From NCBI GenBank assembly GCA_020341815.1, contig CP070837.1, forward strand, positions 1,108,575 through 1,172,574: DNA of 64,000 nt, read 5' to 3'. The position numbers and the translations under genes were made by a program. Origin of the DNA: Candidatus Omnitrophota bacterium (GTDB lineage: Bacteria; Omnitrophota; Gorgyraeia; JAFGHF01). This document shows positions 25,346 to 43,606 of the stretch, one piece after another (position 1 is the stretch's first letter; each line of letters starts with the position of its first letter). The notes under the pieces were generated by a model. The model did no database searches. It was given only the letters and a program-made list of their open reading frames with translations, and was not told where the DNA came from.

Positions 25346-25355
25346 GAAGATATTT

Positions 25356-25433: not shown

Positions 25434-25480
25434 TTATATTTTGTCGTTAAAATTTGAAAAGTCAATAAATAGATAGTTTT

Positions 25481-25556
25481 GCCGGGATAGCTCAGGTGGT
25501 AGAGCGCGGCCCTGAAAAGGCCGGCGTCCCCAGTTCAACTCTGGGTCCCGGCACCA
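25481..25556 (+). tRNA. tRNA-Phe (anticodon GAA)
   Basis: gccgggatagctcag start, anticodon loop ct-GAA-aa and 3' tcccggcacca. Confidence 0.85.
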
Positions 25557-25577
25557 TTTTTATCACCTGCCTAATGT

Positions 25578-25649
25578 GCTGGCGTAGCTCAGTGGTAGAG
25601 CAGCGGTTTCGTAAACCGCAGGTCGTCAGTTCAATCCTGACCGCCAGCT
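25578..25649 (+). tRNA. tRNA-Thr (anticodon CGT), CCA not encoded
   Basis: gctggcgtagctcagtggtagagc start, anticodon loop tt-CGT-aa, T-loop gttcaatcc and acceptor cgccagc. Confidence 0.8.
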
Positions 25650-27381: not shown

Positions 27382-28221
27382 ATGGGCTTGGGCAGGAAGT
27401 GGACGATTATAATAGCGGTAATTCTGGGACTTTCGGCCGTAATTCTGACTAATATCTATTTAGAGCAGAGCAGGAGAGAAATAGTGGTCGAGGAGGCCCG
27501 GATTTTAATTGCAGCCAGAGATATAACCAAAGGTTCGGTGATTGATTATGATATGCTGGCTTTTAAGACTATGCCGCTTACATTTATCCAGCCGGGGGCC
27601 TTCGCCTCTAAAGAAGGTGCCGTAGGCAAGACTGCAGCGATTACGATTATAGCAGGAGAACAGATTTTAAGTAGCAAATTGGCCGCTCCGGAGACAGGAC
27701 TGACTCTGGCCGGCAAGACCCCTCCCGGCAAAAGGGCGATAACTATCGGGTTGGATGCGGCTTCGGCGGTAGGGGGGATGGTTGGGCCCGGAGACCATGT
27801 CGATGTCCTGGCTATCTTTACCGCTCCTTCGATAACCGTAACTTTATTTCAGGATATCCTGGTTCTGGCGGTGGGACAGAGAATAGTGGCTGAGGCCGAG
27901 GAAAGAAGGCCCCGCAGAGAAGAGGTTTTGGGAACAGGCAGGGAGACCGTTACTTTGGCTCTCACTCCCCAGGAAGTGCAGATTCTTATTCTGGCAACGG
28001 AACAGGGAAAGATTCGCCTGACTCTCAGGCCGCGCATGGAAACGGGTGAAGTCTTGCCACAAGTGGATTTGACTAATTTACCGCCGGTGATTGAGCTGAA
28101 TACATTATTGCAGTTATATATCAGGAGGCCTCCTGCCGAAATGGTGGAGCCTAAGGCGCAAGTTGAAATCATTCGTGGCCTAAAAAAGGAAGTTACGCCC
28201 GTTCCGGAAAACAATAAATGA
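27382..28221 (+). CDS. cpaB: Flp pilus assembly protein CpaB/RcpC
   Basis: N-terminal TM, then a SAF-like domain (ITKGSVIDYDML...). Sits in a tad cluster. Confidence 0.75.
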   Translation: MGLGRKWTIIIAVILGLSAVILTNIYLEQSRREIVVEEARILIAARDITKGSVIDYDMLAFKTMPLTFIQPGAFASKEGAVGKTAAITIIAGEQILSSKLAAPETGLTLAGKTPPGKRAITIGLDAASAVGGMVGPGDHVDVLAIFTAPSITVTLFQDILVLAVGQRIVAEAEERRPRREEVLGTGRETVTLALTPQEVQILILATEQGKIRLTLRPRMETGEVLPQVDLTNLPPVIELNTLLQLYIRRPPAEMVEPKAQVEIIRGLKKEVTPVPENNK

Positions 28222-29786
28222 AACTTAAAACTTTAATTCTGACAATTTGTCTTGCCCTGTTGACCCAGAGATTAGCTTTCACCTGGACAGAAGAGGTGCA
28301 GCTTGTTACCAACGAATTAAAGATAATTCCGGTTCAGGAGCTAAAGAGGGTAGCCATAGGAGACCCTGCCGTAGCCGATATGACCATATTGAGCGCTCGG
28401 GAAGTAATGCTGATGGCCAAGAGTTCAGGTACCACCAGTCTGATTATCTGGGATGCATCAGGCCAGCGTTCCTTTAACATTACTGTCCTGGGTAAGGATC
28501 TGGAAAAAATTGCCCAGAAAATCAGGGAATTACTTGTTTCCTCGGATATTCAGGGGGTGACGGTTAAGGCGCAAGAGGACGGCGTTTATGTGACGGGAGA
28601 GGTGTTAACCCAGTACGAACTGGATAAAGTTAAGAGCGTTTTAGCTCCTTTTGCTACTAATACGACAAATTTAGTCAGACTCAAAGAGCGCCAGCCTCTG
28701 GTGGAAATAGATGTAAATGTCTTAGAGGTTGCCTGCGATGACGTAAAGAGGCTGGGTTTTGACTGGTCAAATCTTTTACCAATCACATACACCGAGCCCT
28801 CAGGGACGCGCACTGCCGGCAGCTCTTATGACCCCAAAAGCCATATTACCGGCAAGGCTCCCAAGCTCTGGAGGACATTCAAGTGGGACCGCAGCACCAT
28901 TGACGCCAGACTGAATTTTTTAATAGAGGAGGGCAAGGCGCGCACTTTGTCTAATCCCAAATTAGTAACCTTAAGCGGTAAGGAGGCATCCTTTTTGGTG
29001 GGCGGAGAAACGCCTTATGTTACGGTGGAGACCGAAGGCAGGACAAAAGTGGAATGGAAAGAGTACGGGATAAATTTAAAGATACTTCCGGAAGTCAATA
29101 CTAAAAATGAGATAAGAATCGTGATGAATGCCGAAGTTTCTGACTTGGGCTCAAGTGTTTTAGAACAGGGATATTCTATCCCTTCCGTCACGACGAGAAA
29201 AGCCCAGACCGAGCTTTTTCTCAACGAAGAAGATACGATTTTTCTCGCCGGCCTGATTAGGAATAGAGATAGCGAAAATATAGATAGGCTTCCCTGGCTA
29301 AGCAAGGTTCCTATTTTAGGCGAGATGTTCAAATATAATAACCTTACTGATACGCGCACAGAGCTGGTAATCTCTTTGACACCGAGAATTATCGGCGAGA
29401 AAGCCGATTTCGAATACATCGCCAGCGAGATGCTCAAGCAGGAAGCAATTTTGGCGGCGCGCTCAGCCTATACCGAGGAAGTTTCTCCGCTCGATTCTTA
29501 CAATCAAATGATAGAGGATATTATTACCAATGCGGTTGTTTATCCCGAGGCGGCTCGCGAGGTGGGGCTTGAAGGTATGGTCAAGATTGAATTGCGCCTT
29601 TTGTCCGACGGCCGGCTGAAAGAGGCTAAAATCAGGGAATCCTCCGGATTCAGCACCTTAGACAGGGCTGCGCTTGCCGCAGTGCAGGCTGTTGATGCCT
29701 ATCCTTCATTTCCATCGCAGATTGCAGAAGAGGAGCTTCTGCTTTCCGTGCCGGTAGTATTCGAAAGTTATACGAAAGGTGAATAA
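28218..29786 (+). CDS. cpaC: Flp pilus secretin CpaC/RcpA with C-terminal TonB_C-like domain
   Basis: Signal peptide, N-terminal BON-like domains and a secretin core (...LVGGETPYV...VPILGEMF...). The last ~90 aa, YPEAAREVGLEGMVKIELRLLSDGRLKEAKIRESSGFSTLDRAALAAVQ, match the TonB C-terminal domain pattern. Confidence 0.7.
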   Translation: MKLKTLILTICLALLTQRLAFTWTEEVQLVTNELKIIPVQELKRVAIGDPAVADMTILSAREVMLMAKSSGTTSLIIWDASGQRSFNITVLGKDLEKIAQKIRELLVSSDIQGVTVKAQEDGVYVTGEVLTQYELDKVKSVLAPFATNTTNLVRLKERQPLVEIDVNVLEVACDDVKRLGFDWSNLLPITYTEPSGTRTAGSSYDPKSHITGKAPKLWRTFKWDRSTIDARLNFLIEEGKARTLSNPKLVTLSGKEASFLVGGETPYVTVETEGRTKVEWKEYGINLKILPEVNTKNEIRIVMNAEVSDLGSSVLEQGYSIPSVTTRKAQTELFLNEEDTIFLAGLIRNRDSENIDRLPWLSKVPILGEMFKYNNLTDTRTELVISLTPRIIGEKADFEYIASEMLKQEAILAARSAYTEEVSPLDSYNQMIEDIITNAVVYPEAAREVGLEGMVKIELRLLSDGRLKEAKIRESSGFSTLDRAALAAVQAVDAYPSFPSQIAEEELLLSVPVVFESYTKGE

Positions 29787-29789
29787 AAT

Positions 29790-31928
29790 ATGTGTCGGAC
29801 AATTTCTATATTTGGTACCAAGGGCGGGGTAGGCAAGACCGTTATTGCCGCTAACCTTGCTGTGAGCCTGACCCAGATGGGGAAAAAAGTAGCCCTGCTC
29901 GATCTGGACTTACAGTTTAGCGGTGACATAGCCAAGATATTGGATGTCAAGCCGAAAGAGACCATTTTTTCTCTTATCCCTCACCTGCCGAAATTAGATA
30001 AGGCCGGCTCCCTCAAGAGACATATGACCAGCCATGCTTCCGGTTTGGATATCCTCTCGGCTGTAAGTAGCCCTAAGGAAATTCCTCAGATTATTCCTTC
30101 CCGCCTGGAGCCAATTTTGAATTTGCTTAAGGCGGAATATGAATTTATCATTATTGACGCCGGCAGTTTCTTTACCGATAGCTTAATTTATTTATTTGAT
30201 AACTCTAATCTTATCCTTGAAGTAAGCACTCCGGATGTGCTTTCTGTGTATCAGACCGAATGGAGTGTGGATACGCTGGAGAACCTGCATTTTCCTTTAA
30301 GTATGGTTAAGTTAATCCTTAATCGCGCCGAAAGCCGGGGAGGGGTACGCTGGGAAGACGTAAAATCTGCCCTGAGGTGTGAGGTAATTGCTCATATTCC
30401 CAGTGATGGGCGCACGGTAGGCCTGGCAGTTAACCGGGGCGTGCCTTTTGTGACAGATACCCCGCGCGCAAAAATCAGCGAGGCCGTAAGAAAGCTGGCC
30501 CAGACCTTAATCAGTCAGGACAGGCTTTATATTGAGAAATTAAAACGTCCGCGTATAGCTGAAGAGCCCGCTCGCGTGGGCCAATTCTGGGAACATTACG
30601 GCCTGGCAGCTCCCTTAACTGTTCTTGGCGCAGAGGAAAAGGACGAAATTATTCTGCTTAAGCAGGCGGTGCATAGCCGATTGATCGATGAACTGGATTT
30701 GAAAACGCTGGATGTAGTAGCCTTAAGCCGCAATCCAGAGAAGGCAAAGCAACTCAGAGAAAGGACAGAGAAGGCTATTGCCAATATTTTGGTGGAAAAA
30801 GGCTCCGGTCTAATCTCTTCTTATGAAGTGCGTAAGGAATTAGTGAAAGAGATTGCCGATGAGGTCCTGGGTCTTGGGCCTCTGGAAGATTTATTAAGGG
30901 ATCCGGAAATAACGGAAGTAATGGTAAATAATAAAGACCAGGTTTATGTAGAGCGCCACGGGAAAATAGAGCTTACCAATAAAAAATTCATCAATAATGA
31001 ACAGGTGCGGGCAGTGATTGAGCGTATTGTTGCGCCTCTGGGCCGAAGAGTTGATGAAAGCGTGCCTATGGTGGATGCGCGTCTTCCCGATGGCTCGCGC
31101 GTAAATGCGATTATCCCTCCCCTGTCTATTAAAGGCCCGACATTGACTATCCGCAAGTTTGCCCGCGAGCGCTATACGATGGAAGACCTGGTTAAGTTCG
31201 GCACCTTAAGTCCGGCGATGGTGGAATTTCTCAAGACCTGTATCCTGGTGCGCCGAAATATGATTGTCTCCGGAGGCACGGGTAGCGGCAAGACCACACT
31301 GCTTAATGCCCTCTCTCGTTTTATTCCCGAACAGGAAAGGATTATCACTATTGAAGATGCCGCAGAACTTAAACTGCATCAGAGACATTGGATATCTCTG
31401 GAGGCGCGCATGCCCAATATTGAAGGAAAGGGCGCTATTCCCATCAGAGAACTTTTTCGTAATTCCTTGCGTATGCGTCCCGACCGTATTATTATCGGTG
31501 AATGCCGCGGCAATGAAACTCCGGATATGCTGCAAGCAATGAATACAGGACATGACGGTTCCTTAACTACTATTCATGCCAATTCTACTCATCATGTTCT
31601 GACACGTCTGGATGCAATGGTTTTAATGAGCGGAATAGAGCTTCCTGTGCGCACTATTCGTGAACAGATAGCCGGAGCAATTAATCTTATCATTCACACT
31701 GCCCGTTTAAGTGACGGTTCAAGGAAAGTAATGTGTATTACCCAAGTCTTAGGCCTTAAAGAGCCGATGGGAATTGAAATGAAAGATATTTTCATCTTTA
31801 AGCAAACCGGCACCGGAAAAGACGGAAAAGTCTTGGGCACATTTAAGCCCACGGGTTTTGTGCCTACTTTCCTGGAAGACATACATCTCAAAGGCATTAA
31901 GCTTTCTCCTTCCATATTCAAATCCTAA
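29790..31928 (+). CDS. Fused CpaE/TadZ-like ParA/MinD ATPase :: CpaF/TadA secretion ATPase
   Basis: N-terminal deviant Walker A GTKGGVGKT (ParA/MinD type). C-terminal half carries SGGTGSGKTT with Asp box and His box, typical of CpaF/TadA. A single 712-aa ORF. Confidence 0.75.
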   Translation: MCRTISIFGTKGGVGKTVIAANLAVSLTQMGKKVALLDLDLQFSGDIAKILDVKPKETIFSLIPHLPKLDKAGSLKRHMTSHASGLDILSAVSSPKEIPQIIPSRLEPILNLLKAEYEFIIIDAGSFFTDSLIYLFDNSNLILEVSTPDVLSVYQTEWSVDTLENLHFPLSMVKLILNRAESRGGVRWEDVKSALRCEVIAHIPSDGRTVGLAVNRGVPFVTDTPRAKISEAVRKLAQTLISQDRLYIEKLKRPRIAEEPARVGQFWEHYGLAAPLTVLGAEEKDEIILLKQAVHSRLIDELDLKTLDVVALSRNPEKAKQLRERTEKAIANILVEKGSGLISSYEVRKELVKEIADEVLGLGPLEDLLRDPEITEVMVNNKDQVYVERHGKIELTNKKFINNEQVRAVIERIVAPLGRRVDESVPMVDARLPDGSRVNAIIPPLSIKGPTLTIRKFARERYTMEDLVKFGTLSPAMVEFLKTCILVRRNMIVSGGTGSGKTTLLNALSRFIPEQERIITIEDAAELKLHQRHWISLEARMPNIEGKGAIPIRELFRNSLRMRPDRIIIGECRGNETPDMLQAMNTGHDGSLTTIHANSTHHVLTRLDAMVLMSGIELPVRTIREQIAGAINLIIHTARLSDGSRKVMCITQVLGLKEPMGIEMKDIFIFKQTGTGKDGKVLGTFKPTGFVPTFLEDIHLKGIKLSPSIFKS

Positions 31929-32657: not shown

Positions 32658-34244
32658 ATGAAACTAAGCCCGGAAATAAAGGCTTTTATTGATGATCAAA
32701 TCAGAACTAAGAAACCATCCCTTACTTACAACAAATTAAGGCAAAAGGTGGCCCAGAGATACAATGTGCGTATCTCCAAGGCAACAATCAGTAAAAGGGC
32801 CAGTGCCTTAAATGTCCGGTTTCGGCCGGGTCGCAGGCGTGCAGGTACCGTTGAGAAGCGGCCGGCGCACAGCACGGCCTTAGACTGCGCCGGGGGCTTT
32901 TTCCTGAAGGGCGCAGAGCTGGAAATAGGCCTATTATCCGCCCTAAATAACTCACTTAAGGTGCGCAGCGATTCCGGGCAGGCTCGACGGGTACTGATGC
33001 TTGCCCGGCAGCTTAACGCCATATTGCTATATGCGCCTGTATTTGGCCTTAAAACCGTGGGTGAAATTGCCTCTTATCAAGGGCAGGGCCTGCTTTACCT
33101 TGCCGAGCAAAAGGATATCCCCGCTGAGAAGGAAATCGAGCAATATCTGCAATTCCTGATTAAACAAAAGTTGTTACTGCCTGCCATTAAGGAAGTTACA
33201 AGGATTTCTCAGGAGGCCCTGTTTGTGTATGCAGAGCTTGCCGGCCGAAAGTTCTATCTGGATGCCCAGTTGCGCTCAGTCTGGCCAAAGCCGAAAATCC
33301 CCCAATATTTTACTGCAACTCTAAATAAGACAAGTAGTTACGTCAAAGATATCTTCCAAAACCCTTCCCCGCAGCAACCGCTGATCTTACAGGCTTGTCC
33401 GGGTTATGCCTTTTTGCCCGGAGAGATGTTCGACCTAATCCAGTGCTTTGAAGAGGCCGGCGAGAAGCCCATTTTACGCCTTGTTATTGGGGGTAAGGCC
33501 GGAGAAGTCCTCAACTGTTGGGAGAGCCTTAAGCCAGGGCAAAAATGCTACTTTTTGGCTCCGTTAAGCCCCTGGCAGTATGCAAAGCTCCAGGGCAGCA
33601 AAATCATCAAAGATTTTAAGCCGTATCTCATTGGGCCGCAGAAAGAGCCGATGTCTGTGGCAGAGGCAGAAGTAAACCTCTTTAATCCACAACTCAATGA
33701 AAACGTTAGAGTTAGGGCAGCAATGGTAAGGAGGCAGGGGGAGCGCCTGGTGTTGGTTACCAATATTTCTCGCCGCGAAGAGCGCTATATCCGCAGGATA
33801 GTTGAAGCCTATTTCTGCCGCTGGCCAAACAGGAAAATGCCCAGCTATTACGACCTGTTAGAGCAGGGGCATGAAGAAGTGCTGGCCCGTTCAGACAAAC
33901 TCTATCGCACAACTCCTTTATTGACAATTGGTTACGACAAAGATGTCCTGAACGGATTTAGGTATCTCCTTGCGCAGCTTAATCGTTATGCCCAGGAACA
34001 CTTTTTCCCGTCGGAGTACAGGAAAGAGGACTTAGACTCTATGTGCAAGAAGTTTTACCGCCAGGATGGATACCTGAAAATGAAACAAGATTGCTGCGAG
34101 GTAACCCTGCGCTCTTTCGCGCAAGATGTCCTTCAGGAGGCCGTTCAGATTGCCCGCCAAAAAATCAATCAAAACGGCATAAAATTCCCTGCCTCGCGGC
34201 AAGGCGGGCCTACCCAGACCCAACCCCAGCTACGTATAAAATAA
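32658..34244 (+). CDS. Hypothetical 528-aa protein with N-terminal HTH; possible regulator or degenerate transposase-like protein
   Basis: N-terminal ...LTYNKLRQKVAQRYNVRISKATISKRA is HTH-like. The C-terminal Y..RW fragment is reminiscent of DDE transposases, but it is incomplete. Confidence 0.3.
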   Translation: MKLSPEIKAFIDDQIRTKKPSLTYNKLRQKVAQRYNVRISKATISKRASALNVRFRPGRRRAGTVEKRPAHSTALDCAGGFFLKGAELEIGLLSALNNSLKVRSDSGQARRVLMLARQLNAILLYAPVFGLKTVGEIASYQGQGLLYLAEQKDIPAEKEIEQYLQFLIKQKLLLPAIKEVTRISQEALFVYAELAGRKFYLDAQLRSVWPKPKIPQYFTATLNKTSSYVKDIFQNPSPQQPLILQACPGYAFLPGEMFDLIQCFEEAGEKPILRLVIGGKAGEVLNCWESLKPGQKCYFLAPLSPWQYAKLQGSKIIKDFKPYLIGPQKEPMSVAEAEVNLFNPQLNENVRVRAAMVRRQGERLVLVTNISRREERYIRRIVEAYFCRWPNRKMPSYYDLLEQGHEEVLARSDKLYRTTPLLTIGYDKDVLNGFRYLLAQLNRYAQEHFFPSEYRKEDLDSMCKKFYRQDGYLKMKQDCCEVTLRSFAQDVLQEAVQIARQKINQNGIKFPASRQGGPTQTQPQLRIK

Positions 34245-34272
34245 GCATGCCTGCCTCGCCCTCAGGCGGGCC

Positions 34273-34311
34273 TGTTAAGAGTTACAAAAGGTGTGTTAAG
34301 CGTTACAAAAG
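34273..34311 (+). repeat. Tandem 21-bp direct repeat (tgttaagAgttacaaaag / tgttaagCgttacaaaag)
   Basis: Seen directly. Candidate protein-binding site upstream of the flp promoter. Confidence 0.6.
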
Positions 34312-34325
34312 TCAGTTTTTCTCCC

Positions 34326-34354
34326 TTGCCAAATCCCCCTTGATATGCTATACT
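34326..34354 (+). promoter_or_regulatory. sigma70-like promoter TTGCCA-17bp-TATACT for flp leader/array
   Basis: TTGCCA at 34326-34331 and TATACT at 34349-34354. Confidence 0.5.
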
Positions 34355-34360
34355 TAGGGT

Positions 34361-34500
34361 GCAGGTAAACAAGGTTACTCGAAAACGCAACCTCGCACTA
34401 ATTTTTCAAAAAATTAGTGCTGGGGCGCAAAGCCACGGGCCCCGAGATTTTGGGGCAGCCGGGCTGCCGAAAGTAACGGCGGTCCGGCTTTTTATTTGAG
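34361..34500 (+). ncRNA. Candidate structured leader / riboswitch-like element (multiple hairpins, GGGGCGCAAAGCC motif, ends in T-tract)
   Basis: Hairpins gcactaattttt/aaaattagtgc (34395-34420), gccccgagattttggggc and ggcagccgggctgcc, then ccggcTTTTTATTT (34485-34497). The GGGGCGCAAAGCCaCGGGcC stretch resembles the c-di-GMP-I (GEMM) GGGACGCAAAGCC core. Confidence 0.3.
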
Positions 34501-34601
34501 GAATTATTAAGACTTTTAAAAAGTAATTATAAAGAGGCGGCAAAATGACAACAAATGGTGCAACAAAAAACCTGCATAGCAAAAAATTGAGGGTAAGATC
34601 A

Positions 34602-34637
34602 GCAGACCTTTCTAATAAGGGGTCTGCTTTTTTATTT
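34602..34637 (+). terminator. Terminator/attenuator hairpin (gcagacc...ggtctgc + TTTTTTATTTT) immediately upstream of flp1
   Basis: 7-bp stem at 34602-34608 pairs with 34621-34627, followed by a T-run at 34628-34637. Confidence 0.55.
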
Positions 34638-34667
34638 TCGTTTTCCATAAATCAGGGAGGCGGTAAA

Positions 34668-34847
34668 ATGAGGCGGCTACTTAAGAGAGGTCAGAGTGTA
34701 TTGGAATACGTTCTGGTCTTGAGCGCGATTGTCGCGGCTATCCTGGCAGTAGCATCTACAATAAAAGGTAATGTAAAAAGTTCTGTAGAGCATGCAGCCG
34801 GGGAAATGTACGATGTTATAGACACAAGATTTCTACCGCAAAAATAA
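34668..34847 (+). CDS. flp: Flp-family type IVb pilin 1
   Basis: MRRLLKRGQSVLEYVLVLSAIVAAILAV is a class III signal peptide with the G/xxxxEY motif and a hydrophobic helix. RBS GGGAGG. Confidence 0.75.
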   Translation: MRRLLKRGQSVLEYVLVLSAIVAAILAVASTIKGNVKSSVEHAAGEMYDVIDTRFLPQK

Positions 34848-34881
34848 TTGCAATAAAGGGAAAGGATGCAGGAGGAATAAA

Positions 34882-35055
34882 ATGAGGCGGCTAAATAAAA
34901 GAGGACAGAGCATATTGGAATACGTGATAATTTTGACTGCGATTATTGCAGGCATTATTTTGGCAACGCCGGAAGTGAAAACTAAGGTTACAGATCTTCT
35001 GACAAGAGCAGGCAACAGAATGCAAACTGAAGTAACAACAAAATTGAATTTTTAA
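34882..35055 (+). CDS. flp: Flp-family pilin 2 (57 aa; below ORF-track cutoff)
   Basis: MRRLNKRGQSILEYVIILTAIIAGIILA... found by manual translation. RBS AGGAGG. Confidence 0.7.
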   Translation: MRRLNKRGQSILEYVIILTAIIAGIILATPEVKTKVTDLLTRAGNRMQTEVTTKLNF

Positions 35056-35074
35056 TGATTGCAGGAGGAATAAA

Positions 35075-35422
35075 ATGAGGCGGCTAAATAAAAGAGGACA
35101 GAGTACCGGAGAATATGCAATAGTTATCGGCTTGATTGTTGCCGCAGCAATTGCCATGCAGACCTATGTAAAAAGAGGAATGCAGGGAAAGATAAGGAAA
35201 GCCGTAGATAATATCAGTGAAGCCACCCGAGGCACAACCTTGCAATATGAGCCTTACTATTCCCACTCGGACTTTGAAACCAACACTCAGGAATATACAA
35301 TGACAGAAGCAACCACAGAGGGTGGAGGCTATGAGAAGCACATGGGTGAGGCGGGAGGATCAACAAAAACATCTCATCGAACCGGAACTCGAGGCATCCG
35401 GGCTGCGTCTGAAGCAGATTAA
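35075..35422 (+). CDS. flp: Flp-family pilin 3 with extended C-terminal tail
   Basis: MRRLNKRGQSTGEYAIVIGLIVAAAIAMQTYVKRG... followed by a T/G/E-rich tail. Confidence 0.7.
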   Translation: MRRLNKRGQSTGEYAIVIGLIVAAAIAMQTYVKRGMQGKIRKAVDNISEATRGTTLQYEPYYSHSDFETNTQEYTMTEATTEGGGYEKHMGEAGGSTKTSHRTGTRGIRAASEAD

Positions 35423-35454
35423 TTGAAACACACAAAGACATAACGAGGTGAAAA

Positions 35455-35805
35455 ATGAGGCGGCTAAATAAAAGAGGACAAAATACTATAGAATATGCAG
35501 TGCTTGTCGCTGTGGTGGTATCGGCTTTATTGGCAATCCAGACCTATTTAAACAGAGGGGTCAAGGGCAGGCTGAGAAGCTCCGTTGATAGCATAGGGCA
35601 GCAGTATTCTGCCGGGAATATGACCAGCTCCTCTACAACTACCGTTGCACCGCAAAAAAATGAGGAGGAATTTGGTACTGATACTTTAGGAAGAGGCTAT
35701 ACTAAGTCAAAAAGTACAGGCGGCACGACTACTGTACAGACTACAGGTGAGGGTGAGAAGACTACTTTGGGCTTGAGCGAAGAGACGTTATGGGAGGGAC
35801 AATAA
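35455..35805 (+). CDS. flp: Flp-family pilin 4 with extended Thr/Gly-rich tail
   Basis: MRRLNKRGQNTIEYAVLVAVVVSALLAIQTYLNRG... Confidence 0.7.
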   Translation: MRRLNKRGQNTIEYAVLVAVVVSALLAIQTYLNRGVKGRLRSSVDSIGQQYSAGNMTSSSTTTVAPQKNEEEFGTDTLGRGYTKSKSTGGTTTVQTTGEGEKTTLGLSEETLWEGQ

Positions 35806-36284
35806 TGAGGCGGCTAAATAAAAAAGGACAGAGCACGGCGGAATATGCGATAGTTATCGGTCTGATTATCGGCGCAGTAATTGGTATGCAGACCTATGTA
35901 AAAAGAGGGGTGCAGGCCAGAGTCAAAGACGCTGTTGATGGTTTTGCTACTCGCGCAGACCATAAGGCTAATTTCGGCGCCGGGGATATTAGTTATAACT
36001 TTACTGACTATAAAAATGCCCAGATTGGAGAAACTGCGCAGGGAGACGTAAAATACTTAAAATCAAGAGACACCACCAGCACCATTGGAACCGGCACTAC
36101 TGCAACCGAGCAGATGGAAAAAGGCGGAAAGGTAACAAGGACATCAACGACAATCCAGACTCGGGAAGTGGATGAAACCTATGATTACCAGAAAGTCCTA
36201 AGAGGACAAGCAGCAGGAGGAGGACAAGCAGGAGCAGGAGCAGGACAAACAGGAGAGCAAACAGGAGGAGGAGGAGGAGGATAA
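35805..36284 (+). CDS. flp: Flp-family pilin 5 with long tail ending in Gly/Gln/Ala low-complexity
   Basis: MRRLNKKGQSTAEYAIVIGLIIGAVIGMQTYVKRG... and a C-terminal GGGQAGAGAGQTGEQTGGGGGG. The ATG overlaps the flp4 stop (taATG). Confidence 0.7.
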   Translation: MRRLNKKGQSTAEYAIVIGLIIGAVIGMQTYVKRGVQARVKDAVDGFATRADHKANFGAGDISYNFTDYKNAQIGETAQGDVKYLKSRDTTSTIGTGTTATEQMEKGGKVTRTSTTIQTREVDETYDYQKVLRGQAAGGGQAGAGAGQTGEQTGGGGGG

Positions 36285-36289
36285 TAAAG

Positions 36290-36652
36290 ATGCGCTGGTT
36301 ATCTAGTAAAAAAGGACAAAATACGTTGGAATACGCTCTTCTTATAGCTACGGTCGTTGGTGCCGTTGTGGGTATGCAGATTTATGCTAAAAGAGGGGTT
36401 GAGGGAAAGCTGAAAAGCGCCACGGATGATATCGGCGCGCAGTTTGACCCCTTGAATACAGCGTACAGCTGGACCAATACACAAGAAAGCACAACGAAAA
36501 CGGTAACCAATGCCAGTGGCGTTAGCAATACCTATATGGGCGTTCCGGGTGGTGGCGTGCAAGAAACAACTACAAGAAGCGGCTATGAGAGCGTTAGCCC
36601 GTGGCGAGTACAGCCAGAGCCACAGACAGAGACAAAGCCACCGCAGAAATAA
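36290..36652 (+). CDS. flp: Flp-family pilin 6
   Basis: MRWLSSKKGQNTLEYALLIATVVGAVVGMQIYAKRG... Confidence 0.65.
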   Translation: MRWLSSKKGQNTLEYALLIATVVGAVVGMQIYAKRGVEGKLKSATDDIGAQFDPLNTAYSWTNTQESTTKTVTNASGVSNTYMGVPGGGVQETTTRSGYESVSPWRVQPEPQTETKPPQK

Positions 36653-36692
36653 ACTATCTATATTGTTTTGAATAGATGAGGTATTTATTAAA

Positions 36693-36848
36693 ATGTTTAC
36701 CGACGGACAGAGCGTAGTAGAATATATGGTTTTATTTGCGATAGTTGCTGCCTTTACTTTGCTGAGCGTATGCAGTTTATTTCCTCCCCTGAGGCAAAGT
36801 TGCCAGATCGCTTTTCAAGGCGCAATGGAGGAGATCTTAGAATGCGAA
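36693..36848 (+). CDS. Small Flp-like protein 7 (51 aa, divergent N-terminus MFTDGQSVVEY...)
   Basis: Found by manual translation. It has the GQSVVEY motif and a hydrophobic helix, and is Cys-rich. Confidence 0.4.
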
Positions 36849-36997
36849 TAAATCACCGCGCGCAAACCACATTGGAATATGCGATTTTAATTGCCGTTGT
36901 CGCAGCCGCATGTGCGGCAATGACTACTTATGTGCAGCGGGCGGTGCGGGCCAATCTGAAAGTGATTGAGGAGCAGATAAATGCAGAACCCGATTAA
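36842..36997 (+). CDS. flp: Flp-family pilin 8 (51 aa)
   Basis: MRINHRAQTTLEYAILIAVVAAACAAMTTYVQRAV... The ORF track's longer 36770 start is probably a spurious extension. Confidence 0.6.
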   Translation: MRINHRAQTTLEYAILIAVVAAACAAMTTYVQRAVRANLKVIEEQINAEPD

Positions 36998-37046
36998 TTA
37001 TTATAATATATTATTAAGGCTCTATATAGTCAGGATAATAGGCAGG

Positions 37047-37496
37047 ATGAATATAAGAAATAAGGGACAGGTTCTTCTAAGAACCGGCGGGCAGGTATTG
37101 CTGGAATACGGCCTTATTTTAGTTTTAATAGCAACTACTATAATTGGCATACAATTATATGTTAGAAGAGGCTTGCAGGCCAGGCTCAAAGACGCAGTTG
37201 ATGGGACAATCGAAAGGATTTATATAACCGCCAAATCCAAGCCTAAGGTAGAATTGCCTACCGGTGAGATACCCCCTATTGTTATTTATTCCCCAGCAGA
37301 TCTTCAATACGAACCTTATTATGAGCAGTCAGATATTACCACCACAAGCAACTCCAACATTACCAATTCTTATTCGCCCGGTGGAGCAAGCAGTAAAGCG
37401 ATAGAGAGTGAGAAAACTATGCGCACAGGCAGCCGTCTTGAGTTGCCTTATTCAGATAAGGCAGGCCCGCCTACCAGCGGCGAGGCAGGAGAATAA
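37047..37496 (+). CDS. flp: Flp-family pilin 9 with extended tail (start uncertain, 36981 possible)
   Basis: MNIRNKGQVLLRTGGQVLLEYGLILVLIATTIIGIQLYVRRGLQARLKDAVDG... Confidence 0.55.
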   Translation: MNIRNKGQVLLRTGGQVLLEYGLILVLIATTIIGIQLYVRRGLQARLKDAVDGTIERIYITAKSKPKVELPTGEIPPIVIYSPADLQYEPYYEQSDITTTSNSNITNSYSPGGASSKAIESEKTMRTGSRLELPYSDKAGPPTSGEAGE

Positions 37497-37497
37497 A

Positions 37498-38013
37498 ATG
37501 GGTAAATTAATTTCATCCAAGAGAGCTCAGGCTGTTTTAGAATATGCAGTTGTTTTGGGTATTGTTGCCCTGGCCCTGGGGATGATGCAGGTATATCTGA
37601 TGCGGGGCATTCAGGCCGGGGTTAAGATTGCCGCGGACGAAATAGGCCTGCAGGAGGATTCGGTAGAGTTGTCTGTGGAATTGAACTCGGCAAAGGAATT
37701 GGATTCGGCAAAGGAATTCGATGTCGCTGAAGTCAACAAGCAGAGATCCGTAGTGCGCAGCGAAAGTGCCAGCACGCACACTATTACGCATGGCGCCGGT
37801 GGCGGCCAGACAGCAGCAGAAACTTATAGTAATGAAATTATCAAAGTGGATGAAACTAATCCCAGTTGCAGCAAATCCTGGTATGGTTGGAGGAAGAAGC
37901 ACGAAAAGCCGGATGAGGCCGAAACTTCTTTGACGGTATTGGGTCCGGGAGGATCCCCGGATACGCCGTTTTCCGGAGAGGCCTACTCTCCCGATAAAGA
38001 ATACGGGGAATAA
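37498..38013 (+). CDS. flp: Flp-family pilin 10 with extended tail and internal short repeat
   Basis: MGKLISSKRAQAVLEYAVVLGIVALALGMMQVYLMRG... with an ELNSAKELDSAKEFD repeat at 37679-37722. Confidence 0.6.
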   Translation: MGKLISSKRAQAVLEYAVVLGIVALALGMMQVYLMRGIQAGVKIAADEIGLQEDSVELSVELNSAKELDSAKEFDVAEVNKQRSVVRSESASTHTITHGAGGGQTAAETYSNEIIKVDETNPSCSKSWYGWRKKHEKPDEAETSLTVLGPGGSPDTPFSGEAYSPDKEYGE

Positions 38014-38014
38014 A

Positions 38015-38371
38015 ATGTTAACAGGACTGATGAAGAAAAAAGCTCAAACCTTACTTGAATATGCGCTGGTAATAGCCTGCGTTGCGGCAGCTTTAATGGC
38101 AATGCAGTTTTATGTCAAGCGCGCTGTGCAGGGAAGGCTGCGCACTGCCGCCGACCAGATTGGCGAGCAATATGAGCCGGGTGACGTAACAGGCGGCTTT
38201 ACCGTAACAGTAGACAGGGATATTACTACAAATGTAGAGCCGGAGCAGGAATTAATCATAGAAGGTGAAGATGGATATGCGACGCTTAGGACGGATACAT
38301 TTACCAAAGATGAGTTTGAGCGCACAGGCACAGAAACCCTGGGCGCATTCGGCTCATCGCTTTGGGAATAA
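38015..38371 (+). CDS. flp: Flp-family pilin 11
   Basis: MLTGLMKKKAQTLLEYALVIACVAAALMAMQFYVKRAVQG... Confidence 0.65.
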   Translation: MLTGLMKKKAQTLLEYALVIACVAAALMAMQFYVKRAVQGRLRTAADQIGEQYEPGDVTGGFTVTVDRDITTNVEPEQELIIEGEDGYATLRTDTFTKDEFERTGTETLGAFGSSLWE

Positions 38372-39719
38372 GAAAGCACAGTCATTGGTAGAATTGGCTA
38401 CTTTTGGCACGGTGCTGCTTTTTGCCCTGACCCTGCTTTTGCGCTACGGGATGAGTGCCAATCAGCAGCAGAATATGAGAATGCAGACTTTCCGCAAGGC
38501 CTTTGTCCGCGCGCGTTCTTATGATTATAAAGCTCGTTATTCGCGCTATTCCGAGGGAGATAAAAATGATCCGCTTTTTCAATTTCATCAGAGTGATATC
38601 TGGTGGCAGCAGGCAATAGCAGCGCAAAACCCCATGAATTTCGTTTCTTCGGATGAATGTTTAGACCCGGGCTGGGAATACGAAAATAAGATTTTAACCG
38701 ACAGCGGCGAATTGGTCAATCCGCCCCTGCCCAGCAATCACTGGCGCACCGTAAATTACGCAGTAGTTGAAGACAAGCCTGTTTTTTCCGCTTCGGGGAT
38801 TTTGCCCATTGCCGAGCGTGCTCCGGCGATGGCGATTACGGAGGCCACCTGCAGCATCGATCTGTTTATGAATCCAGGCTATGGCGACAAAAGGGCCCTG
38901 TCGCGCGCAGAATATGAAATTAACGGCAAGAGATATTCTTTTACCGCAGCCGGGTACAAGGAAGTTACGCTGACTAACGGCAAACTTGAAAACGGAAGCC
39001 CTATTATCATAAAAGAGGACATTGAGGATTGGAACGGACAAGGCAAATGCTGGAGACCGAAAGAGGTAAAAGTCCTTAAGGCAGGAGACATCGCAAATGT
39101 GGATGACGACCCTTATGAGGAAACCGTCATGGAAGCCAAGACAAGTGTTCTTGAAGTAATTGACGATGAGGGTAATCAGGTAAAAGTAGTAAATTCTGAA
39201 AAAAATATTATTGAACTCTACTTCAGCATTGACTATGTGGATGAGAACGGGTCTTACGCCGGGACTGGACACCGTAAAGGCAGATATACGCTTAGTGAGG
39301 AAGAGATAGGTGCAGCTGCGAAAGACTTTATAGAAATTAATGTATGCCTTGGCAGCGTTTATGATGGCGCCGATGCCGATGAGAAGTATATGTATAGAAA
39401 AGAAAAAATAAAGGTTATTGGATGGAAAAATGAATTAAAGGTGCTGGACCAGCAAGAGGGTGAGGTTTTCGCAGAAAGAATTAACCCTATAACAGGCGAA
39501 GAGGAAAAAGGCGGGCTCTTGGGCAGTTACAATAAAAAAACAGAAGTGAACGCATCTACTTTGGAGCGCAAAGAGAACGCTTTGGGCATCGAGACCATCG
39601 AAGATATCAATGCCCGGGAAATATTCAACCGCACAATTAAAACCCGAGATGGAGATCACAATGTACAGAGCAGCTTCTCCACACAAAAAACAACGACCTG
39701 GGATACGCCCCATAAATAA
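38265..39719 (+). CDS. TadE-like pseudopilin with large C-terminal domain (start uncertain; overlaps flp11 3' end)
   Basis: ...GNKKAQSLVELATFGTVLLFALTLLLRYG is a TadE-like N-terminal domain. No in-frame ATG lies downstream of 38310, so the gene must overlap the flp11 3' end. Confidence 0.5.
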   Translation: MKMDMRRLGRIHLPKMSLSAQAQKPWAHSAHRFGNKKAQSLVELATFGTVLLFALTLLLRYGMSANQQQNMRMQTFRKAFVRARSYDYKARYSRYSEGDKNDPLFQFHQSDIWWQQAIAAQNPMNFVSSDECLDPGWEYENKILTDSGELVNPPLPSNHWRTVNYAVVEDKPVFSASGILPIAERAPAMAITEATCSIDLFMNPGYGDKRALSRAEYEINGKRYSFTAAGYKEVTLTNGKLENGSPIIIKEDIEDWNGQGKCWRPKEVKVLKAGDIANVDDDPYEETVMEAKTSVLEVIDDEGNQVKVVNSEKNIIELYFSIDYVDENGSYAGTGHRKGRYTLSEEEIGAAAKDFIEINVCLGSVYDGADADEKYMYRKEKIKVIGWKNELKVLDQQEGEVFAERINPITGEEEKGGLLGSYNKKTEVNASTLERKENALGIETIEDINAREIFNRTIKTRDGDHNVQSSFSTQKTTTWDTPHK

Positions 39720-39963
39720 GTCGAGGGCTCAGGCGACAATAGAGGCAACAATATCCATCATTGCCGTGTTTATCTTTCTTCTGGGGGCAATGCAGATCTT
39801 TCTCTGGATGAACCGCAATATTATTGACCGGCAGAAGGCCTATCAGGAAAGCAGGCTGTCATTGGGCGATTTCACAAGGAAGCCGGGAAAAAATGACGAA
39901 ATAAAGTCAATAGATTTTTACCAGCCTACAGAGTTCTCTGTTTTTTCGCAAGAGGGTGAATAA
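39661..39963 (+). CDS. TadE-like protein (start uncertain; overlaps upstream gene)
   Basis: ...SRAQATIEATISIIAVFIFLLGAMQIFLWMN is a TadE-family N-terminal motif. Confidence 0.5.
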   Translation: MYRAASPHKKQRPGIRPINKSRAQATIEATISIIAVFIFLLGAMQIFLWMNRNIIDRQKAYQESRLSLGDFTRKPGKNDEIKSIDFYQPTEFSVFSQEGE

Positions 39964-41590
39964 GACTATGTATCAGGGAAATGTGTTTATAAACTGGCAG
40001 TATTTTCGCAAGGATAAAAAGAGCGGCCAGGTAGCCACCTTGATTACCCTGGCTATTGCCATAATCTTTTTATTCGTGGCGGTTACCCTGAATATCAGCC
40101 GCGTTGCCGAGAAAAAGACCGCTACCGCCAATGCCGCTGATGCAGCCGCAATGAAGCTGGCCTCTTATCTGGGCAGTTACGCCAATACATTGAGCTGGCA
40201 TGCTGTTGACGGCAAGACATTCAACGAAACAAGGCACTATACGCCGGCATGGAAAATAGTGACTGTGGTAACATTAACAATAGTTGCCGTTATTGCTTCA
40301 GGAGGAACGGCATTAGCAGCGGCATTAGGAGGAACGAGCACAGCATTAGCTGCCGGCATCGGCGCAGGCATCACCGGTCTTGGTTATGCATATGATCAGT
40401 TTATCGGGCTTCCGGAATTTGAAGAAGAACTGCAGAAGGAGCTGAAGAAGTTAGAATTGGAAGACAATCTCAGCGAGCAGGCAATAAAATATGCCCTGGA
40501 AAATTGCGTAGATGACCCGGTAATGGTAATCGATGTTCATGACTACAATAAAGACGATGATGTGACCGATGAGATTCCCCGTTTTTATAAATGGTATATG
40601 GAAAGAGTTAAGATGTTAAGCAAGGCGGCCGCAGGCAAAAGAGCACAGATAGATAGCTTTGTTGGCCGGATAGAAACCTTTGCCAGAGATGATGATAGTT
40701 TCAGCCGGAGAATCAGCGGAGAGTTTATTCCCTTGTTCGAGGAATTAGAGGCAATAGAGCTTGACCTTTCTTTCTGGGAGGCAGGGCCTACGGATCCGGA
40801 AGAATCGCTTTGCGGCTGGGATGAGGTGGATGACCTAAAATTACATCTGGATAACTTTTATCAGTGGGCCCTGGGCGAAGATGGGCTTTGTGTGCAGGAT
40901 TTTGATAGCATAGTAATGTTGTATAATAGCTGGATGCTCGACTTGCTCAGGGATGAAGAGGAGCCCTGGTATGATGTATGGGAAGAGGATATTGTAAAAA
41001 TAGAAAACTGGTGCCGGGAGTTATACGATGTATATGCCCAGCTTGAAGGAATGATTGCCAAGGAGACCGATGCTGAGCAAAAGGCCAGTCTTCTGGAGTT
41101 GCAAGAGCGCCTTGCCCCAACGATTGGCGCTTTTGTTAAGATGAGGGATAAATTGAGAGGATTTAATAACGAAGTTTTGGTATTCGATCTTCAGAGCAAA
41201 GACGAAAACTTTGCTTCCGAGAATGAGGCTACCTATTCCTGGTATGATTCTTTGGGCTGGCACCATGTGCGCGTAGAGGTTTCTGCTTTTACTATGCCCT
41301 GGGTTAAACCGGACACAGACAGACATGTCCACAGGACCGATTTTGAAGTTTGGCTGAAGAATTACAGGGGGACGGTAACTGTGACGGTAACCCGCTATGA
41401 TGAGTCAAACAGCGCTTCTTTTGCCCGGGAAGGCACTCCCTTATGGAAGTTTCGTTATGTAAAGGATGCCCAGGCCGAGCAGAAAATTAAACCCGAAGAT
41501 CCCGAATCAGCCTTGCCTTACGGGATTAAAAGTGAAGCTACGGCCTCCTACACTTTCAACGAATTACCTAAATTGGTGGATGTGAAATAA
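39956..41590 (+). CDS. TadG-like pilus assembly protein
   Basis: ...KKSGQVATLITLAIAIIFLFVAVTLNISRVAEKKTATANAADAAAMKLASYL matches the Tad/TadG-like N-terminal domain pattern (PF13400). Large C-terminal domain. Confidence 0.6.
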   Translation: MNKTMYQGNVFINWQYFRKDKKSGQVATLITLAIAIIFLFVAVTLNISRVAEKKTATANAADAAAMKLASYLGSYANTLSWHAVDGKTFNETRHYTPAWKIVTVVTLTIVAVIASGGTALAAALGGTSTALAAGIGAGITGLGYAYDQFIGLPEFEEELQKELKKLELEDNLSEQAIKYALENCVDDPVMVIDVHDYNKDDDVTDEIPRFYKWYMERVKMLSKAAAGKRAQIDSFVGRIETFARDDDSFSRRISGEFIPLFEELEAIELDLSFWEAGPTDPEESLCGWDEVDDLKLHLDNFYQWALGEDGLCVQDFDSIVMLYNSWMLDLLRDEEEPWYDVWEEDIVKIENWCRELYDVYAQLEGMIAKETDAEQKASLLELQERLAPTIGAFVKMRDKLRGFNNEVLVFDLQSKDENFASENEATYSWYDSLGWHHVRVEVSAFTMPWVKPDTDRHVHRTDFEVWLKNYRGTVTVTVTRYDESNSASFAREGTPLWKFRYVKDAQAEQKIKPEDPESALPYGIKSEATASYTFNELPKLVDVK

Positions 41591-41591: not shown

Positions 41592-41846
41592 ATGAAAAAC
41601 AGAGGCAGTTTAATTTTGGAATACAGTCTTTTGATTGCGGTGGCAGTGGCGGCCTTGCTCTGCATGCAGTTTTATGTGAAACGGGCTGTCTGCGGGCGCT
41701 TTCGTCAGGCCGCAGATGCCTTTGGTTACGGCCGGCAGTTTGAACCTGGTGTAACGAAGGTAACAAAAAAAGAACCGGTTGGACCATTGACAGTATCGGC
41801 TCCGGTGAAATCACCGGTAACGCCGGTTGACGTAATTGCATATTAA
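41592..41846 (+). CDS. flp: Flp-family pilin 12
   Basis: MKNRGSLILEYSLLIAVAVAALLCMQFYVKRAVCGRFRQAADAFG... Confidence 0.65.
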   Translation: MKNRGSLILEYSLLIAVAVAALLCMQFYVKRAVCGRFRQAADAFGYGRQFEPGVTKVTKKEPVGPLTVSAPVKSPVTPVDVIAY

Positions 41847-41856: not shown

Positions 41857-42705
41857 ATGTTATTAGTGTTAATCTTTACATTGGCATTTGCTTCGATAGC
41901 GCTTCTTGCCTGGCAGCTTTATCCTGCCGGGGCGCGCATAATCGGGGCGTATCACGCCAAGAGGGTTAAGCGCGACAGCAAAAGATTGGAGAGGATGTTT
42001 CTGGAAGTGCCTCATAAGAAACTGATTTTAGTTTACGGGCTTTCTCCGGTGATTACAGGTATCGGCGGCTTTATTCTTACCCAGACTTTAGCAGGCGGAT
42101 TAATCGCCGCGGCCTTCGGCATAATTTTACCTAATACAGCGCTCAAGATAATGGAGAAAAACCGCATCAGAAAATTCCGTCAGCAATTAATTGACGGCCT
42201 GATGATTATTTCCAGCTCCTTAAAAGGGGGCTTGAGTCTTTTGCAGTCTATAGAAGTATTGGTTGAGGAGATGCCTGCGCCTATCAAACAGGAGTTTGCC
42301 CTTATCCTGCGCGAAAATAAGATGGGCGCCTCATTAAGTGAATCCTTGGCCAGACTAAACAAGCGCATCAAGAGCGAGGAATTAAACTTAGTGGTTACGG
42401 CCATTGACATTGCCCGGGAGACAGGGGGAAATTTAACCGAACCCCTTAAGAAATTAATGCTTACCATCAGGGAAAGAGACAAGCTCCTGGGCAAACTGAA
42501 GACCCTGACCATGCAGGCAAAGCTGCAGGGACTAATTATGAGTTTTATGCCGATTATTTTTGGAATTGTAGTTTATTATTTGAATCCGGGATTCTTTAAG
42601 ATTATGCTGGTTGTCCCTACCGGCCGCATGCTTTTAGTGATAGCAGGCGTTTTGCAAATGGTAGGCGCATTCTTACTCTGGAAGCTCAGCCAGGTGGAGG
42701 TGTAA
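41857..42705 (+). CDS. tadB: Flp pilus assembly protein TadB (T2SS-F family)
   Basis: Multi-TM protein with a GspF-like domain, following the pilin array. Confidence 0.75.
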   Translation: MLLVLIFTLAFASIALLAWQLYPAGARIIGAYHAKRVKRDSKRLERMFLEVPHKKLILVYGLSPVITGIGGFILTQTLAGGLIAAAFGIILPNTALKIMEKNRIRKFRQQLIDGLMIISSSLKGGLSLLQSIEVLVEEMPAPIKQEFALILRENKMGASLSESLARLNKRIKSEELNLVVTAIDIARETGGNLTEPLKKLMLTIRERDKLLGKLKTLTMQAKLQGLIMSFMPIIFGIVVYYLNPGFFKIMLVVPTGRMLLVIAGVLQMVGAFLLWKLSQVEV

Positions 42706-42709
42706 CAGG

Positions 42710-43606
42710 ATGATAAACTTTTTACCCTATATAATTCTTCTGCTTGCCTTCAGCTCCATATTCATTTTGGTGAGCCAGTATTTCTCCCATAGAGAAAGAC
42801 AAAAGCTTATCAAAGAACGTTTTGCTTCTGCGCAGAAAAAGGAATTAGAGAAGCCTTTCTGGATGGAGCCCTTGCTTAAACCTTTGGCCCCTATTAATGA
42901 ACATATAGGCAATAAAAGATTTCGTGAGCATATCAGGCAACGCCTCTTGGGAGCCGGCTCTCCTTTGAGCGTGAATGAATATTTTGTATTTAAAGAAGTT
43001 ATGGTTTTGTTTATGCCGCTCATTTTAGCTATTGTAATCGGCTGGGATAATCTGCTTAGCATTCCGATACTTGTAGTGGCTGCCTGCGGATTTGGTTTTA
43101 TTTACCCCGATTTTTGGTTAAAGGTCAGAACCCAGAAGCGCCGAAAGGATGTCTTGCGCGCCCTGCCGAGCATCATCGATTTATTGACCCTGGCTGTAGA
43201 TGCCGGGCTTGACTTTATGATTGCCGTGCGCCGTGTGGTGGAGCATTCGCGTCCCGGGCCGATGGTGGATGAGCTTTCCTTTCTCTGGCAGGAGGTGCAG
43301 ATGGGGCGCGTGCGGCGCGATGCCTTAAGGAGTATGGCGAAAAGATTAGACCTTGCCGAGGTGCACTCCTTTACCCGTACGCTTATTCAGGCAGAGAGAA
43401 TGGGTACGCCTATGGGTGAGGCCCTGCGGACTTTAAGCGATGAGATTCGTATGCGTCAGTTTCAAAGGGGAGAGCAGCAGGCTCTCAAGGCTCCGATTAA
43501 GATGCTATTTCCTCTTCTGTTTTGCATTCTGCCGGTAGTATTGATTTTGGTCGGAGGCCCGGTAATTTTACAGTTTTTCCAGACCAGTTTTCAATTTTTT
43601 AAATAA
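42710..43606 (+). CDS. tadC: Flp pilus assembly protein TadC (T2SS-F family)
   Basis: Second GspF-like membrane protein. Confidence 0.75.
   Translation: MINFLPYIILLLAFSSIFILVSQYFSHRERQKLIKERFASAQKKELEKPFWMEPLLKPLAPINEHIGNKRFREHIRQRLLGAGSPLSVNEYFVFKEVMVLFMPLILAIVIGWDNLLSIPILVVAACGFGFIYPDFWLKVRTQKRRKDVLRALPSIIDLLTLAVDAGLDFMIAVRRVVEHSRPGPMVDELSFLWQEVQMGRVRRDALRSMAKRLDLAEVHSFTRTLIQAERMGTPMGEALRTLSDEIRMRQFQRGEQQALKAPIKMLFPLLFCILPVVLILVGGPVILQFFQTSFQFFK

Follow-up and report, generated by a model that had tools for sequence, protein, structure and literature searches.

Short-tract gene conversion as the probable source of a shared 5' block in a tandem Flp pilin array of a Candidatus Omnitrophota bacterium

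Why should neighbouring genes of one operon open with almost the same nucleotides and then go their separate ways? The question is posed by a pilin locus in a 64-kb stretch of DNA (the window; all coordinates are window positions) taken from a metagenome-assembled genome (MAG) of Candidatus Omnitrophota. Between 34668 and 38371 lie eleven tandem, co-oriented small genes (designated g1-g11), each encoding a short, basic leader and, behind it, a [G/A]-Q-x-x-x-E-Y motif followed by a hydrophobic helix. Judged by these marks, the genes are pilins of the Flp type (type IVc), forming an array of 11-13 within a Tad pilus locus. Several of them share a 5' block that spans the translation start and the leader, and this block is probably the outcome of lineage-specific, short-tract gene conversion among neighbouring old paralogues. 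So understood, the feature adds a case to a process already known, concerted evolution by gene conversion, and does not represent a novel type of system. The genes are:

34668-34847, + strand: g1, short Flp-type pilin (MRRLLKRG/QSVLEY) with a diverged 5' block and its own Shine-Dalgarno sequence (SD)
34882-35055, + strand: g2, short Flp-type pilin of 57 amino acids, the body of which resembles the "A" gene of the related contigs L003-L005
35075-35422, + strand: g3, Flp-type pilin of 115 amino acids, QYEPYY class, with orthologues across Omnitrophota
35455-35805, + strand: g4, Flp-type pilin of 116 amino acids
35805-36284, + strand: g5, Flp-type pilin of 159 amino acids with a Gly/Gln/Ala-rich tail
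36290-36652, 36693-36851 and 36842-36997, + strand: g6-g8, Flp-type pilins or pseudopilins with their own, unconverted leaders
37047-37496, 37498-38013 and 38015-38371, + strand: g9-g11, Flp-type pilins or pseudopilins with their own, unconverted leaders

The repeated block

The block runs from the SD (AGGAGG) through a 6-nt spacer (AATAAA), the ATG and the leader MRRLNKRG into the opening bases of the mature pilin. A search of the window finds the 44-nt string TGCAGGAGGAATAAAATGAGGCGGCTAAATAAAAGAGGACAGAG in exactly two exact copies, where chance would provide 0; in g2 and g3 this tract spans -15 to +29, and the two start codons are 193 nt apart. The perfect repeat had already been picked out in an earlier, sequence-only reading of the window, correctly except for coordinates that were off by one. 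A 26-nt core, from the ATG on, is exact at 34882, 35075 and 35455. The same reading had the core recurring at 35455 and 35805, but the copy at 35805 carries one mismatch, AAAAGAGG to AAAAAAGG, which changes Arg to Lys; also overlooked in that reading was a fifth copy at g1 (34668), more diverged than the others, with a leader that matches those of g2 and g3 at 25/29 positions. The four closest copies are placed as follows:

34867-34910, + strand: 5' block copy 1, exact 44 nt, from the SD of g2 to the first 5 nt of its mature part
35060-35103, + strand: 5' block copy 2, exact 44 nt, belonging to g3
35452-35480, + strand: 5' block copy 3, a 29-nt exact run common to g2 and g3, -3 to +26 of the g4 ATG; the SD differs
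35804-35835, + strand: 5' block copy 4, 32 nt with one mismatch (35824, A for G), belonging to g5; the SD differs

As direct repeats of the array, these elements are 26-44 nt long, with a spacing of 193-380 nt. The boundary of the g2/g3 tract is sharp (44/44 identical, then 42/100), and in 20000 column permutations no run of 44 nt is reached, the longest being 22. The coding sequence beyond the block had been described as unrelated at the nucleotide level. That is so only where g2 is compared with the others (42-47/100 in the 100 nt that follow), but g3, g4 and g5 are still 61-74% identical over that span, because they have the conserved N-terminal pilin helix in common. Purines make up 35/44 (80%) of the block, and the start regions of g2-g4 are predicted to be unstructured (minimum free energy, -0.9 to -3.0 kcal/mol). 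An Rfam scan gives no match to an RNA element in the block. A double-GGA site of the CsrA type was considered and dropped: the second GGA is the Gly codon at -1, which varies (GGT, GGC, GGG) in g1 and in other arrays.

The first thing to be settled about a repeat in a MAG is whether it is real, since short-read assemblers can mis-join at repeats, and collapsed or mis-joined reads at similar gene starts would mimic what is seen here. An independent Logan assembly of SRR14739666 leaves this explanation hardly credible. It is identical to the window over 32764-34896 and 35074-38785; its unitigs end at 34896, 30 nt into copy 1, and restart at 35074, the very break points that a k=31 graph is bound to produce at a true repeat of 44 nt. 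The repeat therefore does not stem from MAG assembly; the shorter copies at g4 and g5, moreover, lie within one unbroken unitig. The g3 protein is recorded, in exact form, from a Candidatus Omnitrophota MAG. No record was found for the g2 protein, as is to be expected of a gene whose unitig sits between two repeat copies. In the metagenome contigs of JGI, the 26-mer, queried as an exact string with R at its variable position, has 0 matches. Repeats of this kind account for short-read assembly breaks inside these arrays.

Comparison with relatives

The argument about origin turns on comparison with L003-L005, JGI metagenome contigs that carry syntenic arrays. In mature sequence, g3-g6 have one clear orthologue each in L003 and L005 (107-137 bits on the diagonal vs 43-65 off it), and the order of the orthologues is conserved, g3-g4-g5-g6-g7 pairing one-to-one in L003-L005. 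The existence of separate orthologues of g3-g6 establishes that the paralogues are older than the split of these lineages. It would otherwise be natural to think of g2-g5 as young duplicates, their 3' parts quickly diverged under positive selection and their 5' ends not yet changed, since pilins are surface-exposed and often fast-evolving and tandem duplicates do arise in these arrays. However, the separate orthologues are found in more distant arrays as well as in L003-L005, which places the duplications before the split, and the helix beside the block is already 26-58% diverged at the nucleotide level among g2-g5; recent birth of the genes is accordingly a most improbable origin for the block.

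The leaders follow another pattern. Those of the relatives are paralogue-specific (MMRLLGRRG, MMRLLNKKG, MRRKFSKKG, MRWLLNKKA and others); those of g2-g5 in the window are all MRRLNK(R/K)G. The more distant outgroup L027 has MMRLFG.. in common with the g3 orthologues of L003-L005, and a Phe that occurs in the g5 leaders of L003-L005 and in most distant g5-type leaders is missing from g5 of the window. These two patterns polarise the change of leader to the window lineage. Among the leaders of the relatives, those of two types, A (MRR..KRG) and g4 (..LNKKG), are similar to the block of the window.

Conservation is reversed with respect to the adjoining helix: the block is least conserved between orthologues and most alike between the paralogues of the window. 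Between the window and L003-L005, orthologues agree at 23-31/44 positions (52-70%) of the 5' block and at 70-82/100 of the helix. Within the window, paralogues g2-g5 agree at 26-29/29 positions of the leader and at 42-74/100 of the helix, whereas paralogues within L003 and L005 agree at only 8-25/29 leader positions. Silent sites are identical as well: the paralogues have in common three different Arg codons and a CTA Leu codon, which makes up 4% of the Leu codons of the window, and the probability of matching all 7 degenerate codons is ~1.6e-4 for two genes and ~2e-11 for four. In g2 and g3 the 15 non-coding nucleotides before the ATG are also identical.

These figures bear directly on the possibility that the signal peptide and translation start are simply constrained, with purifying selection alone and no recombination keeping the copies alike. 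The block is certainly functional (SD, ATG, basic leader, Gly at -1), and its purine-rich, unstructured character resembles that of efficient start regions. Yet orthologous leaders vary freely in sequence and length across 90 arrays, and g6-g11, which belong to the same operon, carry quite different leaders, so that no particular leader is needed. Constraint also fails to provide for a block that is less conserved between orthologues than the helix, or for the identity of synonymous sites, of the rare CTA codon and of 15 non-coding bases. The sequence-only reading had named purifying selection on the signal peptide and ribosome-binding site as the explanation that would undo its own; the free variation of orthologous leaders between genomes contradicts it, and as a sole cause it is very improbable.

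The two short pilins at the head of the array are less readily paired. By small margins, the best counterpart of g1 in the relatives is their second gene (B), in the body as well as upstream of it, and that of g2 is their first gene (A). The order of g1 and g2 is perhaps swapped (34668-35055 in the window vs 275-707 in L003), and such a reversal of two short pilins may, on this sequence evidence, reflect a rearrangement at the 5' blocks.

A mechanism for the shared block

Gene conversion is retained as the probable cause because purifying selection cannot give the pattern and orthology excludes young duplicates. The sequence-only reading had proposed it, and it is the best explanation of a block that evolves fastest between orthologues and is nevertheless most alike among paralogues. 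In outline, a 5' segment of 20-44 nt would have been copied between neighbours by non-reciprocal homologous recombination, whether gene conversion or template switching, and the copying would have overwritten leaders specific to each paralogue, which survive in the corresponding genes of relatives. The g2/g3 tract is the longest and presumably the youngest, those of g4 and g5 are shorter, and the copy at g1 may be older or partial. The tract ends near the cleavage site; the purine-rich SD upstream and the codons for G/Q-x-x-x-E-Y downstream could have served as homology anchors. That the closest pair of starts (g2-g3, 193 nt) has the longest tract agrees with a distance-dependent process.

The leader of an Flp pilin is removed by a prepilin peptidase. 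The mature pilins would be unaffected by the copying because the leader is cleaved off. What the copying would have left behind is, first, a set of genes, g2-g5, with the same first codons and leader, g2 and g3 having the same SD and spacer also, and, second, direct repeats of 26-44 nt with a potential for the loss or duplication of whole pilin genes. On this account the locus exemplifies concerted evolution on a small scale, in which a tract of 20-44 nt, comprising only the ribosome-binding site and a cleaved leader, is copied among old paralogues.

Other Omnitrophota arrays

In 90 other arrays, almost all from MAGs of Omnitrophota, 7-13 such genes is the usual number, and these arrays provide a setting in which the frequency of such events can be judged. 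One of them, L063, contains what is, by the identities that follow, an independent and polarised g3-to-g2 conversion of the same kind. Its g2, a short pilin directly upstream of a g3-type gene, has a body identical at 123-125/144 positions to g2 of L031 and L045, but its 5' 43 nt match its own g3 at 40/43 and the g3 of L031 at 40/43 vs 27-31/43 for the g2 of L031 and L045. In L056 and L044, the same gene pair is partly homogenised.

Pair statistics were compiled for 738 pilin starts from 91 loci, a pair being taken as conversion-like when the leader matched at >=22/24 positions and the helix at <70%. Such pairs number 7/2889 within genomes vs 4/265107 between genomes. With the threshold set at 20/24, the window supplies 8/17 of the within-genome pairs and is the most extreme array seen. 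A second metagenome scan, made with a g4 alignment, added distant arrays only (L086-L094).

Several considerations weigh against reading the block as the product of conversion. The recombination event is deduced from comparison of sequences rather than seen directly. This lineage is represented in the databases by a single genome, and its nearest relatives are ~50-67% identical in protein, so that the timing and the donor of each conversion cannot be fixed; the orthology of the short genes g1 and g2 is weak. Over the 91 arrays, mean within-genome leader identity is 0.40-0.44 vs 0.38-0.42, an excess of only ~2 points, which implies that conversion is sporadic, not general, in Omnitrophota. Finally, selection for uniformity of the leader is another possible reason why several events cluster in one array.

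The last of these points can be taken further, to the proposal that the homogenised SD-plus-leader blocks are kept identical by selection and not by chance conversion. Two versions of it can be put forward. The blocks may serve translation or processing as a module common to some of the pilins, fixing the output of this subset downstream of a cyclic di-GMP (c-di-GMP) riboswitch, which is described below. Alternatively, they may be deliberate direct repeats that allow rapid loss and gain of pilin genes in a host-attachment pilus; if this were true, the array would be a simple device for varying the pilin repertoire in an ultra-small, probably parasitic bacterium, of a sort not yet described for Tad pili. 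Taking the two versions together, we consider the proposal unlikely.

Whole-gene events are also on record in these arrays. Recent tandem duplications of entire pilin genes are seen in L020 (4692/5789), L026 (4693/5368) and L052 (3294/3651 and 4035/4799), and a two-gene unit is duplicated in tandem in L032 (3882/4651/5358 and 4256/5025). In the duplicates of all four arrays, identity continues through leader and helix. They show active birth of pilin copies in other arrays.

Pilin variation and known systems

A near-identical 5' end followed by divergent 3' parts had suggested to the sequence-only reading a pilin variation system that shuffles C-terminal modules. Stated in full, such a scheme would make the 5' blocks recombination sites at which pilin bodies are exchanged, deleted or duplicated in the manner of Neisseria, Moraxella or Mycoplasma. 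It is not without attractions: direct repeats of suitable length and spacing lie in an array that specifies a surface structure of a probably host-attached bacterium, whole pilin genes have recently been duplicated in L020, L026, L032 and L052, and the two short pilins are perhaps in swapped order relative to L003-L005.

The locus offers little else that such a scheme calls for. Every block copy has an SD and an ATG, and all copies belong to complete genes, in direct orientation, of one operon. When the variable parts were searched against the 64 kb by tblastn and blastn, only the genes themselves and weak similarity of paralogues were returned, with no silent or 5'-truncated donor cassettes and no extra copies of variable parts. 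The reverse strand of the window has no match to the block with up to 3 mismatches, all copies being on the + strand, and neither strand of the window has a G-quadruplex (G4) motif of the form G3+N1-7 x4. Direct repeats, moreover, can only delete or duplicate, and an exchange of identical leaders between complete genes leaves the mature proteins unchanged. As to the shuffling of C-terminal modules, the bodies of g3-g7 are in the same order as in L003-L005 and correspond one-to-one to orthologues there, and the part that is copied is the conserved 5' block encoding the cleaved leader, not the variable part. Programmed variation of pilins is, on balance, improbable.

No domain of a site-specific recombinase was found in the neighbours of the array. 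One of them deserves separate mention:

32658-34244: open reading frame (ORF) of 528 amino acids between a DUF192 gene and the riboswitch, with a weak match to HTH_32 and no NCBIfam match

Between 32516 and 32764 the Logan unitigs are interrupted, so that the 5' end of this ORF may be repeated elsewhere in the genome; the ORF may be a mobile element.

Comparison with systems that are generally known places the proposed conversion more precisely. It resembles the 5' and 3' ends of babA/babB and other hop genes of Helicobacter pylori, and tufA/tufB of Salmonella, where a limited segment is kept identical by non-reciprocal recombination: there, as here, the paralogues are older than the species, boundaries are sharp, silent sites are identical and the rest of the gene diverges. 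The present case differs in its tract of 20-44 nt, in the confinement of that tract to an SD and a cleaved leader, in the involvement of 4-5 adjacent genes of one operon, and in implying no switch of phenotype. With pilE/pilS of Neisseria it has in common that pilin genes with conserved 5' and variable 3' parts undergo gene conversion. In Neisseria, however, it is the variable 3' part that moves, aided by a G4, from silent, promoterless, 5'-truncated pilS copies to a single expression locus; here all copies are complete and co-transcribed, it is the conserved part that is copied, and the window has neither silent copies nor a G4 motif.

The vsp, vlp and vsa systems of Mycoplasma likewise have tandem surface genes in which a near-identical 5' untranslated region and signal peptide precede unrelated mature parts, but they work by site-specific inversion or slippage in promoter tracts and have genes in mixed orientation, whereas the orientation here is direct throughout, with no inverted repeat and no recognisable recombinase. 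Identical 5' ends in arrays of surface-protein genes thus need not mean a system of antigenic variation. Tad loci that begin with or contain several Flp genes are familiar from Aggregatibacter actinomycetemcomitans (flp-1/flp-2) and Haemophilus ducreyi (flp1-3), which also have the G/XXXXEY processing motif; the arrays discussed here are much larger, with 11-13 pilin-like genes.

In a full-text search of the literature we found no report that ties Flp pilins to gene conversion, nor any that ties c-di-GMP riboswitches to Flp/Tad loci. A survey of Omnitrophota (PMC10066038) reports Tad complexes and giant ORFs, and makes no mention of pilin arrays, leader homogenisation or the riboswitch.

The riboswitch and leader region

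The DNA between the 528-amino-acid ORF and g1 contains a succession of putative control elements:

34326-34354, + strand: promoter-like site, TTGCCA-17-TATACT with an upstream TG (consensus scan, 10/12)
34376-34471, + strand: c-di-GMP-I riboswitch aptamer (Rfam RF01051; 47.8 bits vs a gathering score of 35)
34457-34497, + strand: hairpin and T-run like those of an intrinsic terminator, a candidate expression platform that overlaps the aptamer on its 3' side
34531-34667, + strand: conserved SD-ATG GAGGCGGCAAAATGA, its ATG at 34545, opening a frame of 41 codons

We infer from its sequence that the site at 34326-34354 is a candidate promoter of the pilin operon. RF01051 is also found upstream of the arrays in L004 (5-121) and L015 (1650-1753), and the c-di-GMP-I riboswitch is absent from 14 more distant Omnitrophota arrays; it is therefore limited to this clade. 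The terminator-like hairpin has a 13-bp stem with 10 GC pairs, followed by TTTTTATTT, and is conserved in L003-L005 and L015. This arrangement of motifs suggests that c-di-GMP controls expression of the Tad pilins in the clade.

The frame of 41 codons crosses a second hairpin and T-run (34601-34637) and enters g1 without a stop codon. The same in-frame arrangement recurs in L003 (140-274), L004 (254-370), L005 (140-274) and L015 (1800-1967), the upstream frame being 39-56 codons long in these and the window, which together stand for three lineages. To the eye, the SD-ATG GAGGCGGCAAAATGA looks like that of g1 itself. Three readings of the upstream frame suggest themselves, namely a relic 5' block, an attenuator of the leader-peptide kind and a long prepilin leader.

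A central part in the lifestyle of Omnitrophota, attached or predatory, is ascribed to Tad pili. An array of 11-13 genes combined with a c-di-GMP riboswitch offers leads on how attachment is regulated in uncultivated cells of this phylum.

The Tad locus and its surroundings

The remaining components of the locus lie on either side of the array:

27382-28221, + strand: RcpC/CpaB, upstream of the array (Pfam, RcpC, 90 bits)
28218-29786, + strand: secretin with a C-terminal TonB_C domain (Pfam, Secretin, 145 bits)
29790-31928, + strand: TadZ-TadA fusion ATPase (Pfam, T2SSE, 210 bits)
38265-39719, 39610-39963 and 39956-41590, + strand: TadE/TadG-like pseudopilins, 3' of the pilin array
41592-41846, + strand: thirteenth pilin-like gene
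41857-43606, + strand: TadB-like and TadC-like platform proteins (Pfam, two T2SSF proteins)

By Pfam, a Tad locus is thus represented by an ATPase of TadA/CpaF type, TadB/TadC, a secretin, RcpC and a TadE/G-like Tad domain. Among the ~30 ORFs of the window that were scanned, none is a prepilin peptidase (TadV/CpaA, Peptidase_A24). Pfam support for the pilins themselves is weak: only g8 passes the cut-off of PF04021 Class_IIIsignal (23.8 vs 23.7 bits), g4 and g9 score 19-20 bits on PF04964 Flp_Fap, below its cut-off of 32.2, and g2, g3 and g10 match neither family. Weak Pfam scores are usual for such short pilins.

TadZ, a ParA/MinD-like ATPase, is joined to TadA/CpaF in a single protein of 712 amino acids (29790-31928). 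Directly downstream of tadB/tadC is an ORF of 1480 amino acids (43616-48058) that has no Pfam or NCBIfam match, and after it comes an open frame (48051-64000) of 5316 codons or more, which continues past the end of the window. A giant ORF after the locus agrees with reports of giant ORFs near pilus and secretion genes in Omnitrophota. Just upstream of the locus are an F-type ATP synthase cluster (b, delta, alpha, gamma, beta) and four tRNA genes (19570-24397 and 25269-25649); co-location of ATPase clusters with pilus genes was noted in the Omnitrophota survey (PMC10066038). Farther from the array, a PyrR binding site (RF00515, 56.6 bits vs 54) is found at 8445-8546, upstream of ORFs at 8558-10044.

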